Of a stretch of DNA of 64,000 bases, positions 109-57,429 are shown in pieces. This DNA is from Eledone cirrhosa. Lineage: Eukaryota. A model generated the notes under the pieces. It did no database searches. It saw only the letters and a list, made by a program, of their open reading frames with translations, and had not been told where the DNA came from. Made by a program: the position numbers and the translations under genes. How positions within the stretch are numbered: the stretch's first letter is position 1; each line of letters starts with the position of its first letter. The stretch covers positions 251,720,001-251,784,000 of the forward strand of contig OZ024742.1 of assembly GCA_964016885.1 (NCBI GenBank), given 5' to 3'.

Positions 109-186
109 ATTGCCTCGTCTGACGAACGAATGAAGTCGTTTATTTCGTATTCGTCTCATTCGGGAAACCTCTGGAAATGAGGTAAT
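109..186 (+). ncRNA. Type I hammerhead ribozyme motif, probably inactive (cleavage triplet GAA instead of GUH)
   Basis: Stem I attgcctcgt/atgaggtaat, core CTGACGA, stem II cgaatga...tcattcg, GAAA, stem III cc-tct-gg, then AA where UH is expected. Confidence 0.6.
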
Positions 187-286
187 TATATTGTATTGAT
201 TTTTATACATTAAATTTTGCTCGGATACTTACATAGAGCACTCTTCATTTCTATGACCTTTTCTGTTTCCAACGGAAATTTCAATA

Positions 287-287
<1 letters not shown>

Positions 288-352
<65 letters not shown>

Positions 353-772
353 AATCTATATATATGTATGTATATGTGTGTATGTATATATATGTGTGTA
401 TGCATATATATGTGTGTGTATGCATATATGTGTGTGTATGCATATGTGTGTGTGTGTATGTATATATATATATATGTGTGTATGCATATATGTGTGTGTA
501 TGTATATATATGTGTGTATGTATATATATGTATATATATATATATATGAAGATAAATTAACGAGCCATAGAGTCGCGTTATTCCTTGTAAATTATGTGCT
601 CAAAGGGAAAGGAATCCTATACATATTGTATATGTATATATTATATGCATGTATATATATGTATACGTGTATATATATGCATGTATATGTTTATTTGTAT
701 ATATGTATATGTGTGTATGTATGTATATATATGAATGTATATACATATATATATGTATGTGTATATATATAT
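288..772. repeat. Compound (TA)n/(TG)n/(TATG)n microsatellites
   Basis: Direct reading; source of the spurious Y/I/C/V ORFs. Confidence 0.95.
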
Positions 773-840
773 AGTTGTAATCTAAATTTTATAGATATAA
801 TCTGAATAGTATGGTAGAATATTAAGTGTTAAATGTTAAT

Positions 841-879
841 TGAACAAGTACTTTCATGCTTTCGCAATCTTCAGGTTCA
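841..879 (-). ncRNA. Minimal type I hammerhead ribozyme
   Basis: Minus strand reads tgaac-CTGAAGA-t tgc GAAA gca t-GAAA-gtac-TT-gttca: 5-bp stem I, GNRA-capped stem II, palindromic GTAC stem III. Confidence 0.75.
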
Positions 880-1187
880 TATTCTGTGGTGACAGTCAAG
901 TTTAAAATTTTCAACTGTAATGAGATGGGTAAATTTTGTGCCTTATATACAGTGAAAAGCGGCTACAGAATGCTAAATTTTGCAAACTGTATTTCGACCA
1001 ATTGGTGTGTAGTTTCACTGGATTACTGAGGCTGATTGGTTTAGGCGTCATGGTTGGTTGAGCATGTCTAACGACTTCTATTTGGCTCTATCCAAAGTAT
1101 CAATTGTTTTGCTATTTTTAGAAATGATGTAAATAACATTTTCTAGGGTTTTTATACCCCTAAGAATTATTATTGTTCAGTTAGCTA

Positions 1188-1225
1188 TGACCTGAAGATT
1201 GCGAAAGCATGACATTACTTGTTCA
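1188..1225 (+). ncRNA. Degenerate hammerhead copy (GACA for GAAA)
   Basis: tgac-CTGAAGA-ttgcgaaagcat-GACA-ttac-TT-gttca; inverted partner of 841-879. Confidence 0.5.
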
Positions 1226-1596
1226 ATTAACGCTTAACACTTAATACTATTTCATTCTAATACCATTATAATTTTAAAGGATTGTAAATAAAACGAGTAA
1301 ATCAGACAAAGTTGGAATTCCTTTTATTAATATAATCTTCTATACACAATCATACACACCCGTGTATATTTATTTATATATATATATGTATATATATATA
1401 TAGCTTTTAAGTTATTTTGTAGTATCTCTGTTCAGGAACACACCACTTATATTAAATTTATCTCCCTGGAGCTTTGTAAAAGTCTGAGAGATTGGCTACA
1501 TATATGTTTTATATATATTTTTTTTGTTTAGATGGAAGACAAAACAAAGAAGATGAATACAAAGATGAAGAAGAGAAAGATAAAGATGAAGAACCT

Positions 1597-1945
1597 CACT
1601 GCACAACACTACACTGCACCACACCGCACTGCACCACACCACATCAAAGTGCACCGCACCACATCACACCACACTTCACCACACCACATAAAAACATGCA
1701 ACACTACACCACACTACTCCACACCACAACACAACACAACACACCACTCCACACCACAACACAACACACCACTCATCACTACAACACACCACACTACTCC
1801 ACATAAAAACACACCATACTACTCCACACCACATAACACCACAACACAACACACCACACCTCACTACATCACACCACATAAAAACACACCTCACTATATC
1901 ACACCACATAAAAACACACCACACTACTCCACACCACACAACACC
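1597..1945. repeat. (CACAC/CACCA)n pentamer low-complexity repeat
   Basis: Direct reading. Confidence 0.9.
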
Positions 1946-1954
1946 CAAAATTTT

Positions 1955-53683: not shown

Positions 53684-53910
53684 ACTAGCAGAATGGCCCG
53701 GCGTTGCTCGGGATTCTAAACATAGATTGGCATGTTTATCCCTCCTTTCTGAAACAGTTTCGTCGTATGTTCACCAATTGATGCAGAAGTCCTAATAAAA
53801 AGTGAAGTCGCCTTGGGTGAATAGGCAAATAATTTTCTATTAAGATTTTTCAAAAATACGTTTGTTTATATTTTGTTTTTGCGTATGCAAAAATATCTGT
53901 ACACGAATAT
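53684..53910 (-). mobile_element. Helitron 3' fragment
   Basis: actagcagaatggcccggcgttgctcggg = CTAG|T end plus hairpin on the minus strand. Confidence 0.7.
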
Positions 53911-53916
53911 GACTAT

Positions 53917-53990
<74 letters not shown>

Positions 53991-54123
53991 GTTAAACAAG
54001 ATTCAATGAGTACATCAAAGAATGAGTTTTACAGTACATTGGAAGCACTCTACAAGTATATTTTCCAGAGTTATTAATATTAATTCAAATATTAACAAAA
54101 TAGATATTCTTGTGATCAATTAA

Positions 54124-54188
54124 ATTTTATTATACATATTTCAGAGGTACTGAATTAAGTTCAACAGTACGTCCTCATCAGATAAAAT
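54124..54188 (-). ncRNA. Type I hammerhead ribozyme
   Basis: attttat-CTGATGA-ggac gtactg...cagtac ctct-GAAA-tatgta-TA-ataaaat. Confidence 0.75.
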
Positions 54189-56554
54189 AAAATGATACAT
54201 GACCTACCCTGACATGATAGATGGTTAAGATTTAATCAAGGTAGTGATTAACATATGAGAAAACTCAATATTTATACCCTAATATTGAGAACATGAGAAA
54301 ACGTAATAGAATCAATAGAGAGAGTGTGAGTAATATATTTTAAGAAATACATTCTCTCAATGTAACAATTATAGGATTTTTAATATTTAAAATACTACTA
54401 TAGAGCTATGCGGTAGAGGAAGACGTAGCTGAAGTTATAACTTATTTAGTATTTAGCTTGAGAAGACAAATGACAGATAATTAAAGAGAGGAAGAGACAA
54501 AGGGGAGTAATTTATGCTCAAATTTCTTTATACACACATAATCATATATAGTTTTGGCGGTTAATTTTCAAAATATTTAATTTATTTCAGGGTAAAGAAT
54601 CAAAATTTTAGGTTTTAAAAGTTGATGGGTATTTGTATTAATATTATAATATAATTATGTTCAAAATTTTATGAAAACAAATTTAAAGGATTTACGAAGC
54701 CCACGAAAGAAAGAAAATATACATATAATGTTCAATATTCCCACAAAGGTAATCTTTATCAAAATTACTTATAACACTGACAACATTTTCTATAATATAA
54801 TTTATGAAATATTTACAGTTATAACTATTAATGAATTTATTGTTAAATAGTTATAGTGCCTAAAGTATTAACAGGTCTTATAATTAAACCTAAAGAAGTC
54901 AGGGTTTTCAGCTATATATATGTGTGTATTGATCATAATACAAGGACTATAATTTATTATTTGTTCGTATATTATATTAAGTAAGTGATTATATAAGTTC
55001 GACCTTCTAGGGAAAACCGAACTATAATTTATTATTAGTTCATATATTATATTAAGTAAATGATTGTATAAGTTCGACCTTCCAGGGAAAATCAAACACT
55101 TATAATAATGTCATTTGGGTGTTTAAATTATTTATATAAATGTAACTACGATTATGTTATTACCGTAGATAAAGATATTTGTATAAAACTATATATAGAT
55201 GTACTAGATATTAATGAAACGGTAAACATTTAATAAAAATAGTAATTATAATCATTGTTATTAGTTTTATACAAATGTAACTATGGTTATGTTATACTAG
55301 ATAAAGATATTTGTACAAACTATATATAGAGATATACTAAGTATTAATGAAACGGTATACATTTAATAAAGAATAACAATTATAATCTTTGTTAGTAGTT
55401 TTATATAAGTGTAACTACGATTATGTTATTACACTAGATAAAGATATTTGTACAAACTATACATAGATATACTAGATATTAATGAAACGGTATATATTTA
55501 ATAAAAAATAGCCATTATAAACATTGTTAGTAGTTTTACCTCCAGTTCAGCGGAGAGATAAACCAATATTTGTCTGCTATTATAGTTTGTTAAATATACA
55601 TAAAAAAGCAAAGCGCAAAATCAACTTTCTGAGTCCTCAAAAACCATCTCAAAATGAGTAAAATAAATATATATATATATATAAAAAAAATATATATATA
55701 TATATAAAAATATGTAAACGCATGAATGATCCACAGTTCAAATTAAAATCAGTAAAATTTACAGGTTAGATATCTAAACTATATATTTAAAACAGAGATA
55801 GAAAAATAAACATGTGAATCAAAGTTAAAAATATCAACAACAAAAAATCCCATAGAGTATGCACATATATCCAGCAAACAAGTGTCATTCATTCAAACAT
55901 TAGTTCCATTATAAATGATTAGAAGATAAAGCATTATTAAAGTTTTATAAGCCTTATATGTTCAACAGTTGATGATGTACGTCGAAAATCAGGCTTGGTT
56001 GCTTAACGGTCAACCAGATATGTTTGGATATATATTGTATATATAAATAATTATCTAAAGACTTGGTATTAACCTTCATATAAATACACCCAATTATATT
56101 TAAAATTTCGATTGATGAATACTTTTAGATAATTCAATGAATTGAGTTTTTTTCTTTTTCCTAAAGCTAAGCCCAAATGTTGTTCTAATTAATATCTCCC
56201 TATATATTACACTATAGAAATTATTCCTCTTTATCTCTCTCTCTGTAATCAACACTCTTTTGCTTTCTATGCTCTTACTAGCTATATTATCCCCGCATCT
56301 GTTTCTTTCTCTATGCCTTTCTTTTCTTTCCTCTTTCTTCAGTAATTTAAATTATTTGAATCACTAACAGTTATATTGCTGCTATGTATTTTTTAAGCTT
56401 TCTCACACGCACCCTTACTATTATATGTATTATATGTAGGTTTTTTTCATGTTTCAATATCAAGGTATATAAATATTGAGTTTTGTCATATATTACTCAC
56501 TACCATGACTGAATCTTAACCATCTACGATGTCAGGGTATGTCATGCATCATCT

Positions 56555-56621
56555 TATTTTATCTGATGAGGACGTACTGTTGAAGTTAACTCAGTACCGC
56601 TGAAATATGTATAATAAAATA
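56555..56621 (+). ncRNA. Type I hammerhead ribozyme, inverted partner of 54124-54188
   Basis: tattttat-CTGATGA-ggac gtactg ttgaagttaact cagtac cgct-GAAA-tatgta-TA-ataaaata; 8-bp stem I. Confidence 0.78.
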
Positions 56622-56650
56622 TACTTGATCACAAGAATATCTATTTTGTT

Positions 56651-56652
<2 letters not shown>

Positions 56653-56682
<30 letters not shown>

Positions 56683-57213
56683 ACGTTTAACGTCCGTGTT
56701 CCACGCTTGCATGGGTTTGGACGGGGGTAGTCCCACTTGAGGCAAGAGTGATTGTCTTGCTCGCATAGGACTGTCTGGCAGGTTTTCTACAGTTGGATGC
56801 CCTTCCTAACACCAACCACATTTACAGTGTGGGTCTGGGAGGTTTTTACCGTGTTGCCTACACGGCCACATTACAGCGTGGACTGTGTGTTTTTTTGTCG
56901 TGACACCTACACGATCTCATTTGTTTTGGTCTCGATGGCGCGGCACCAACATAACTTTACATAGAACGGGGTGGTGTGGATGGGGAGGGGGGGGGGGGTG
57001 TATTTTGTTAGAGATGCCTACTGGCTGGAGTAGGTTTTACTATATATTTAGGTAAGGCGGGTCTTCTCTGTTACTGAGTACCGCCAAAGGTCTCGGTCCA
57101 GTGACATTGTCTTGGAGAGGTGTAAGTGTGTGATGTCGGAGTTTATCAGCTCGTCCCAGGTTTTTCTAGGTCTGCCTATTCCGTGACTACCGTCTATCTT
57201 TATTGCCCTGCAC
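56653..57213 (-). mobile_element. RTE LINE 3' fragment with (GAT)n tail
   Basis: Close match to 4250-4806. Confidence 0.9.
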
Positions 57214-57429
57214 TTATTAATATTAATTCAAAATATTAACAACTCCGGAAAACTTTTTTTGTTGAGTGCTTCCAATCTATTGTAAAACTCATTCTTTGAT
57301 TTATTCATTGAACCTTGTTTAACCTTTAAATATACAATATATATATATATATATATTGAATATTATTATTATTCGAAAAACTCAGATTACATTTATTATA
57401 TATATTTATATATAATATATAATGTGTTA

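Follow-up and report, generated by a model that had tools for sequence, protein, structure and literature searches.

Two-armed hammerhead units in Eledone cirrhosa as probable insertion footprints of Penelope-like elements and a 312-bp retrozyme

Hammerheads and two-armed units in the window

The window analysed here, a 64,000-nucleotide stretch of the Eledone cirrhosa genome, contains five units (A to E) built from inverted arms, the hammerhead cores lying on the minus strand in the left arm and on the plus strand in the right arm (Table 1). This geometry, pointed out in a first-pass annotation, is real in all five units, and the genome-wide enrichment of divergent pairs that the same annotation expected is borne out: hammerhead pairs point outward in 23 of 23 cases in family E and 9 of 9 in family D, with none convergent (0/23 and 0/9). 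The exact hammerhead pattern of family B has 41 matches and no pair <5 kb apart, because this family is older and exact matching requires that both arms be intact.

Table 1. Features of the window; core positions carry the sign of their strand where given
Feature	Position	Strand	Hammerhead cores	Remarks
PLE-type two-armed element, right arm end	1..289	+	119 (damaged)	Long end in (TA)n at 289
~24-kb inverted-repeat host element, in-window part	289..22847	.		Right end 22847; extends left of the window
Unit A	805..1365	.	-874 (passing), +1192 (damaged)	Carried by the ~24-kb host repeat
Family E, left arm	24991..25865	-	-25162, -25474, -25786	312-bp type I hammerhead retrozyme in 2.8 copies; short end in (TA)n
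Family E, right arm	25866..26129	+	+25926	5'-truncated; long end at position 173
Unit B, long arm	29767..33405	-	-29973	Probable PLE 3' end with hammerhead and 3' UTR; long end in (TA)n
Nested LTR element in unit B	30726..32707	+		340-bp LTRs, 99.7%; AGAT duplication
Unit B, short inverted arm	33401..33726	+	+33554	5-nt overlap with the long arm
Unit C	38004..38259	.	-38063 (broken), +38198 (passing)	Arms of 102 and 155 nt
One-armed partial-tandem PLE, family N	40529..47970	-		Broken ORF between 2.1-kb pLTRs
Unit D, left arm	53986..56005	-	-54181	Subfamily D1; long end in (TA)n
Unit D, right arm	56005..57327	+	+56563	Subfamily D2; also a long end

Nine motifs in the window, the union of two descriptors, satisfy the type I (minimal) hammerhead, i.e. 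core boxes, stems I and II, and a short stem III. Their density is above that of shuffled sequence (6 against a mean of 0.04 and a maximum of 1 in 150 block-wise dinucleotide shuffles for one descriptor; 5 against a mean of 0.19 and a maximum of 2 in 300 shuffles for the other), a contrast that is optimistic, the descriptors having been tuned after motifs were seen (an initial one detected 3). That initial descriptor overlooked motifs whose stem II base carries U-U and was dropped. The earlier count of about 15 hammerheads is approached only when damaged or doubtful motifs are included (16 candidates): +1192 has an altered GAAA box, +33554 a disrupted stem I, -38063 a disrupted core, and the motif at 119 an altered U16.1; stem I was not found at 17387; and two core variants lie in the pLTRs of 40529-47970. 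Units A, B, and C have a single passing hammerhead arm each. Core boxes and stems are kept in the majority of B, C, and D copies, and four variants from other runs fall in loop II or in a stem I that still pairs. A U opposite a U at the stem II base occurs in families A, C, and E and at 17387. The hammerheads of B and D have common loop II and stem III features, so the earlier description of the arm families as unrelated in sequence was too strong.

An Rfam scan of the window returned only four weak HH9 matches (19.9 bits, E 3.3), all in the family E array, the rest being microsatellite noise; folding-energy z-scores were unremarkable in seven of eight motifs, so that energy alone does not pick them out; and a one-mismatch hammerhead scan gave two unconvincing matches. 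Published work attributes little or no cleavage to motifs of this kind by themselves.

Coding relatives, a host repeat, and a retrozyme

The first-pass annotation tied these units to Penelope-like elements (PLEs), a link that coding relatives and the insertion footprint described below both uphold; coding relatives, of the RT/GIY-YIG type, are seen directly for A and N and probably exist for B and D. Families N and A have a single ORF encoding RT, with GIY-YIG at its C terminus, of which the window copies are broken or truncated. Relatives of family N, 97% identical, have 796-aa frames, and one of them (L260) matches RVT_1 at 38.2 bits (cut-off 29.6) and GIY-YIG at 28.3 bits (cut-off 22.6); a PDB sequence search with the N protein returned no match. 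The window member of N (pLTRs 40529-42614 and 45906-47970, 87.9% identical) served as a footprint control in a coding family. Partial-tandem pLTRs also occur in other N loci, and a D tandem in L198. The long form of family A has a GIY-YIG domain (31.7 bits, cut-off 22.6), and its free parent family has 775-aa frames.

The motif at 119 tips a 4.26-kb element (window -3973..289; L186:4027-8289) whose left end lies 4 kb before the window. Its 1075-bp arms are 95.8% identical and flank a broken RT/endonuclease-like ORF; the left-arm hammerhead is intact, and the ends lie 38 and ~112 nt beyond the cut. The L186 frames gave no RT or GIY-YIG Pfam match; B and D loci align with them by tblastn at 28-41%, and B, D, and the 119 element are presumably PLEs, judged by these alignments and by sequence motifs. 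Units A (808-1266), B, and D thus appear to be 3' ends of coding PLEs, and the 119 motif appears to tip another.

Unit B starts at 29767, not at 29822 as first annotated, and its long arm ends in a decayed endonuclease remnant (~33180-33400; 25% identical, E 1e-5, to the endonuclease-like L186 frame); other B loci continue into the same domain. The short arm is 94% identical to the left arm and at most 91% to other loci. The nested LTR element, which stands outside the two-armed structure, contributes 2 kb of the unit's length. In family B, a seemingly fixed 5' end at position 310 was discarded, as it reflected a break in the BLAST alignment where the window copy has a deletion. Unit D, with arms 84% identical to each other (left 97-98% to other copies, right 89-90% to L283), is by these identities and the D2 haplotype of its right arm a composite of two subfamilies; a LINE fragment (56654-57222) interrupts its right arm. 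Sequence resembling endonuclease and RT follows in D loci, and in 6 of 24 an arm stops at one point, at an initiator-like motif with a TATA-like box 31 nt upstream.

Unit A, whose right arm reaches ~1365 rather than the 1266 first given, derives from one inverted PLE 3'-end insertion that has undergone internal deletion. It sits inside a ~24-kb repeat that is colinear with copies on C1-C5 and that shows both ends with 8-9-bp flanking duplications in three copies, two of them with one mismatch. The unit recurs whole (92-96%) only as cargo of this inverted-repeat element: the host flank is common to 29 of 29 other loci, and none of 20 free A copies lies inside the host. The DNA repeat would later have spread unit A passively, and such a giant repeat can mimic a 'fixed' two-armed family in annotation.

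Family E fits a non-LTR retrozyme: an AT-rich, non-coding, ~300-bp tandem unit with one hammerhead per copy (TRF period 312, 99%; 511 exact hammerhead matches; local GC 0.34). In the window copy, the left arm has its short end at monomer position 141, the junction at 25865/25866 is blunt, and both arms carry one haplotype. Contigs from four sequencing runs join monomers head to tail, as does the DNA, and are silent on expression. Unit C belongs to an old ~150-nt hammerhead family; its arms are 75% identical, and its ends are left unclassed with respect to the long and short ends described below. A tblastn search with PLE proteins gave no match tied to the arms of C or E, and both families seem to behave as PLE cargo rather than coding members. 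Their mobilisation by PLEs is likely from the footprint, and the retrozyme likely borrows the PLE enzyme.

Outer ends, junctions, and the origin of the arms

The units had been described as ribozyme-terminated. They end 21-170 nt past the ribozyme cut sites, at two fixed outer ends, and are therefore not ribozyme-terminated. The 5' ends of E arms are not enriched there: 1 of 51 falls no more than 3 nt from the cut site, and 6 of 51 lie at most 20 nt away against 3.3 expected (p 0.11). The hammerheads would face outward only because they lie near the 3' end of each arm.

All 30 loci with the exact E hammerhead and all 24 D loci on chromosome C1 were censused, together with 20 N and 20 free A loci selected for long open frames; a further locus set, biased by a query that contained the inversion, was left uncounted, and the pattern census was used in its place. 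All 53 scorable insertions in E, D, N, and A (53/53) have one long and one short end, the long end bearing a tail of 27-90 nt depending on family. This comprises 16 of 16 two-armed D loci (8/24 being one-armed or unscorable), 9 of 9 scorable N loci, and 7 of 7 scorable free A loci; in E, where 23 of 30 loci are two-armed and 7 one-armed or unscorable, outer ends lie at position 141 on one side and at 162-172 on the other in 21 of 22 independent loci (one duplicate removed). An inverted adjacent copy with 5' truncation occurs in 23/30 E, 16/24 D, 9/20 N (both ends read), 7/20 free A, and 5/12 B loci. Outward arms, (TA)n targets, and two fixed ends, one of each per insertion, are seen directly, and so is a haplotype common to both arms: in E, mismatches occupy 19 of 954 haplotype cells (2.0%) between arms of one locus and 18,531 of 47,970 (38.6%) between loci, and in D mismatch is 9.6% within a locus versus 19.2% between loci.

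The first-pass annotation read these units as a class of fixed, non-autonomous elements, two-armed and with ribozyme termini, each moving as a whole and resembling a MITE. Recurrent outer ends, the whole recurrence of unit A, the end-to-end resemblance of L002 to unit C (76%; one of 27 other loci fetched), and a D junction shared by L292 and L304 speak for it, as do small D units of 230-440 bp in TA, which do look like MITEs. A class with a fixed interior is not borne out: the expected recurrence holds for the outer ends and fails at the centre, where junctions, each unique and often with short microhomology, differ in 22 of 22 E loci (18 overlaps with a median of 3 nt, 1 blunt, 3 with inserted bases). 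That is the one-off inversion at insertion which the annotation itself had named as fatal to its proposal. The shared D junction has two exact and two one-mismatch matches in 3 Gb, free A copies have variable junctions, and A and probably B and D have coding relatives. With A borne by its host and element ends beyond the cut site, we regard such a class as highly improbable. Nor does the pattern of a MITE or TIR DNA transposon, in which copies have both ends and the interior in common, hold here: junctions and sizes differ.

Separate RNAs or insertions might instead have entered the same microsatellite and been homogenised later by hairpin conversion. Same-end pairs, which this would predict along with convergent ones, number 0 of 53 in the censuses; exceptions elsewhere are L098, L132, and the window D unit. 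L132, with two long ends and mirrored flanks, looks like conversion, and with the two subfamilies of window D and the density of PLE copies in (TA)n it counts in favour of separate insertions. A rule that two templates underlie every same-end pair suits window D and perhaps L098, and fails for L132. Arms abut through microhomology with no TA between them, and one arm resembles the other no more closely than the monomers of a single arm resemble one another (all-site divergence in E 0.84% within arms, 0.95% between arms), so we consider this origin unlikely.

Self-priming fold-back on the antisense template, one arm copying the other (Arkhipova et al. 2013, PMC3846280), would account for the head-to-head order and identical haplotypes, and short fold-back fragments are present at some junctions (L280, L284, L303). 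The copied arm must then sit within its template, and therefore the arm with the tail is expected to extend deeper inward in every insertion. It is the arm without a tail that extends deeper in 10 of 16 insertions of D (two others being ambiguous), 4 of 9 of N, and 4 of 7 of A, and the arms of L300 overlap by only 6 nt, all of which makes fold-back very unlikely. Arm lengths in E are uncorrelated (rho 0.16, p 0.48, n 22). L284, a possible further case of non-overlap, was set aside for a possible later deletion.

We therefore favour, at a probability of roughly 0.8, the reading that these units are insertion footprints of PLEs and of the 312-bp retrozyme, with two cDNAs likely primed by the Penelope enzyme, one at each end of a cut (TA)n. 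The GIY-YIG domain would nick both strands of the self-complementary (TA)n. One cut end would prime at a near start site and the other 27-90 nt further 3', leaving the tail, so that two start sites of one template type would be used. Both cDNAs would run 5'-ward through the uncut hammerhead, stopping either at random points or on reaching the 5' end of the RNA, and their 3' ends would be joined via 0-8 nt of microhomology. The retrozyme template may be a circle or multimer, whereby both arms would be multimeric. In the test tube, both target strands are cut and extended by an anole PLE, which favours AT-rich DNA and uses uncut RNA; two start sites bound its tail, and a dimer model is offered, although, against the present model, the two strands showed no difference in start site (PMC11167929). 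Tentatively, and at somewhat less than even odds, a PLE dimer may make two simultaneous copies of a single RNA molecule, each half with its own cut (TA)n end and start site, and two-directional retrozyme arrays of up to 13 monomers may be circle-rolled and born whole in one event rather than by later unequal crossover. The shared haplotype is compatible with one RNA, two transcripts of one source, or later conversion.

The architecture is a published PLE trait and not a new element class; its value is mechanistic. Hundreds of young events are available in this genome, in which long and short ends are paired almost without exception, each event has one haplotype, and the arms are not nested; together these features argue against fold-back copying and give a sharp prediction for the existing in vitro system. 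Short two-armed copies risk being annotated as TA-targeting MITEs.

Comparison with known systems

In L1 twin priming, two primers at one target use one RNA and yield a microhomology-joined inversion, as here; the L1 arms cover different parts of the RNA, whereas here both hold the 3' region and face outward. MITEs (PMC8969392) are likewise short and non-coding, with inverted ends and TA context; unlike them, the units here have no fixed interior or length, and show unequal ends, 5' truncation, and RT/GIY-YIG kinship.

EN+ PLEs (PMC3846280; PMC8557442) share head-to-head inverted arms, partial-tandem pLTRs, a tail at one end, microsatellite or AT-rich targets, microhomology joins, and a TATA box with an initiator-like motif in the pLTR. 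In print their tail measures 30-40 bp and is called 'optional' or 'often' one-sided, against 27-90 nt and 53/53 here; our arms violate the 2013 self-priming model (PMC3846280), and Craig et al. 2021 (PMC8557442) describe the origin of tandem and inverted PLE structures as undefined. Published minimal hammerheads likewise have a short palindromic stem III, occur in thousands per genome, form dual motifs ~100-700 bp apart on opposite strands, and include a U3-A8 core variant like the one in family N; a conserved G10.1-C11.1 pair after an extra nucleotide is reported for them, where A, C, E, and 17387 have U-U. Inverted 5'-truncated arms, a one-sided tail, and opposite-strand hammerhead pairs are thus already published. 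Near-obligate long/short pairing, one retrozyme haplotype, and a PLE footprint on a retrozyme were not found in print in the available main texts of the papers cited.

Anolis Poseidon PAc (Frangieh et al. 2024, PMC11167929) resembles the present families in cleaving and extending both strands of an AT-rich target and in using uncut RNA with two internal start sites bounding the tail; the available text, where 'inverted' occurs once, derives neither the inverted arm nor a pairing of the two start sites. Metazoan non-LTR retrozymes (Cervera and de la Pena 2020, PMC7229834; Li, Clavereau and Pollet 2026, 10.64898/2026.07.22.740005) are, like E, ~300-bp AT-rich tandem, non-coding units with one type I hammerhead each, and have been proposed as non-autonomous PLE derivatives. 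E differs in its two-directional arrays, PLE tail ends, and single haplotype; the word 'inverted' has 0 and 1 occurrences (a reference title) in the available texts of these papers. The preprint bases its case on phylogeny and considers local amplification at a later stage (10.64898/2026.07.22.740005), whereas the form of the E arrays suggests birth at insertion. Beside the published phylogeny, the footprints thus offer insertion-site evidence for an animal retrozyme moved, in all likelihood, by Penelope machinery.

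Hammerhead motifs and their carriers

The window (G000:C3:251720001-251784000 within a 3.0-Gb assembly) is AT-rich and dense in microsatellites and repeats, and its 51 CTGANGA cores are mostly chance occurrences. Two descriptors requiring stems I and II as well as both core boxes, tuned after the motifs had been seen, yielded 6 motifs versus 0.04 in shuffles (n=150) and 5 versus 0.19 (n=300), giving nine distinct motifs at a density above that of shuffled sequence; Rfam support for them is weak. In all five named units (A–E), the left core is minus-strand and the right core plus-strand, the outward geometry described in the first-pass annotation.

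Coordinates of hammerheads, units, and associated features (window positions; sign = strand)
Feature	Position	Reference
Unit A	~805-1365
Unit E	24991-26129
Unit B	29767-33726
Unit C	38004-38259
Unit D	53986-57327
Passing hammerhead motifs	-874, -25162, -25474, -25786, +25926, -29973, +38198, -54181, +56563	descriptor scans
Damaged partner copies	+1192, +33554, -38063, +119
Doubtful candidates	17387, two pLTR variants
~24-kb host repeat	<1-22847	full copy G000:C2, about 398648393-398672171
Histone 3' stem-loop matches	23082-23127, 23336-23380, 22545-22589	small element 23332-23543
Family E outer ends	141 and 162-172 nt	downstream of predicted cut
Family D outer ends	about 55 and 145 nt	downstream of predicted cut
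Family A outer ends	about 125 and 165 nt	downstream of predicted cut
Family B outer ends	about 58 and 157 nt	downstream of predicted cut
Family N outer ends	two, 37 nt apart	downstream of predicted cut

Most two-armed units, in which a left minus-strand and a right plus-strand hammerhead arm meet at a central junction, appear to be the ends of coding Penelope-like elements (PLEs). A 4.26-kb element, whose 1075-bp arms (95.8%) flank a broken ORF, has the motif at 119 in its right arm; Pfam profiles did not recognize its frames, and the ORF is called RT/endonuclease-like from motifs and structure. Loci of families B and D elsewhere continue into similar domains, and unit B, about half of which is a nested LTR element, holds a decayed remnant of one. 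Unit A is an internal deletion of a long form with 379-bp arms (96%) and a GIY-YIG domain; its parent family, young and coding, has frames of 775 aa. A one-armed PLE at 40529-47970 (family N) has relatives with 796-aa frames matching RT and GIY-YIG above cut-off. No coding relative was found for families C and E.

Several further observations concern the motifs and their neighbours. U lies opposite U at the stem II base in four unrelated hammerhead families (874(-), 17387(+), 25926(+), and 38198(+)). In the family N pLTRs (~40790 and ~46170 (-)), a U3-A8-type core that has a good stem II but hardly any stem I is conserved across almost every copy read. Very short hammerhead-like pieces of another family (17326-17460; L166, L168, L175, L085, L176, and L206) are common and occur in opposite-strand pairs. 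The LTR element nested in unit B (30726-32707) is young and has 340-bp LTRs that are 99.7% identical. Its flanks resemble a primer site and a purine tract, it lacks any 150-aa frame, and a related interior lies at 28576-29649. In an LTR retrotransposon at 33757-37962, direct repeats of 90% identity enclose frames resembling gag and pol (34139-37073), and an apparently intron-free fragment at 60430-61044 (-), possibly a piece of a processed pseudogene, matches the C-5 DNA methylase C-terminus (26.1 bits; cut-off 22).

Recurrence of the two-armed units

An exact pattern for the 312-bp retrozyme of family E has 511 matches in the genome; 23 of all 30 loci fetched from chromosome C1 are two-armed, and 23/23 are divergent (outward-facing). 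The family D pattern has 228 matches, and among the matches listed (100 of 228) nine pairs lie within 5 kb versus 0.03 expected, all divergent, which bears out the predicted enrichment of such pairs.

The pattern is real and of a known kind; the class of MITE-like, ribozyme-terminated non-autonomous elements proposed in the first-pass annotation is not supported. The two-armed structures do not transpose as fixed wholes. Two family E loci (L156 and L172) have a common junction and flank and represent a duplication, and the remaining junctions differ in 22/22 cases (18 overlapping by a median of 3 nt, 1 blunt, and 3 with inserted bases), with arm content ranging from a fragment to about seven monomers. 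On C1, 16 of 24 family D loci are two-armed and varied in size; a junction met at two loci is matched exactly at 2 sites, and with one mismatch at 2 more, in the whole genome. Unit C matches end to end at 1/27 other fetched loci (76%). Unit A does recur whole, but inside a ~24-kb host repeat: the flank beyond it is common to 29/29 other loci, none of 20 free family A copies lies within that repeat, and their junctions vary.

The host repeat has inverted ends, possibly of Merlin or Mutator type, and 8-9-bp flanking duplications. It is packed with simple repeats and fragments captured from elsewhere (an initial survey gives about 3000 candidates for its cargo), and an interior block of ~6.7 kb is tandem at least three times in L180+L212+L213 (G000:C1:140407500-140437499). 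Its subterminal part and that of a short relative match the histone 3' stem-loop (35.6 bits; Rfam cut-off 34).

Outer ends and the proposed mechanism

Every family shows two outer end positions, which lie almost always within (TA)n. Where both ends of a two-armed insertion were readable, one was long (with an extra 3' tail) and one short (tail-less) in 21/21 insertions of family E (one further insertion has an irregular end), 16/16 of D (the L286 partner, 5.4 kb off, is less sure), and 9/9 of N and 7/7 of A, each from a set of 20 loci picked for long frames. Family B, in rough agreement at 5/12 loci, was left out of the count. Long/long exceptions outside the scored sets are L132, with mirrored flanks, L098, and the window's unit D, whose arms belong to two subfamilies, making it a composite.

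Each insertion event appears to draw on one template type. Across 29 C1 loci and the window's locus, family E haplotypes set by eight polymorphic columns differ in 2.0% of cells between opposite arms of one locus versus 38.6% between loci (all-site monomer divergence is 0.84% within and 0.95% between arms); in family D, opposite arms differ by 9.6% versus 19.2% between loci. One arm cannot be a fold-back copy of the other where the tail-less arm extends further inward, as in 10/16 D, 4/9 N, and 4/7 A insertions, and containment of one arm within the other often fails.

We read the two-armed units as insertion footprints of PLEs and, in family E, of a retrozyme (probability about 0.9). Two-ended priming is probable, and the use of a single RNA molecule per event has roughly even odds. 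Both strands of self-complementary (TA)n would be nicked and two cDNAs made, one per start site, with synthesis passing through the uncut hammerhead and the two cDNA ends being joined via microhomology; the family E template would be circular or multimeric. The predicted cut shows no excess of arm 5' ends, and multimeric arms run across it repeatedly. At 6/24 family D loci, one arm ends at the same position, 114 nt upstream of the cut, where an initiator-like motif follows a TATA-like box by 31 nt; we infer that synthesis ran off the template at the transcript start. Four D arms (L282, L286, L298, and L302) end within 9 nt of the cut site, none at it, perhaps owing to a pause at the fold.

Comparison with known systems

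Inverted 5'-truncated copies, one-sided tails, and microsatellite bias are already described in PMC8557442 and PMC3846280, and retrozymes are proposed as PLE derivatives in PMC7229834 and a 2026 preprint (10.64898/2026.07.22.740005). Hammerhead pairs on opposite strands are likewise known, and minimal motifs did not cleave as monomers (PMC4209133). Obligate long/short pairing, a shared haplotype of both arms, and two-directional retrozyme arrays were not found in the literature searched (open-access main texts); the rule on ends is of moderate mechanistic interest. In vitro, an anole PLE (PMC11167929) behaves in line with the proposed steps, although its start sites did not differ between strands; in the anole no read was reported to end at the cut site.
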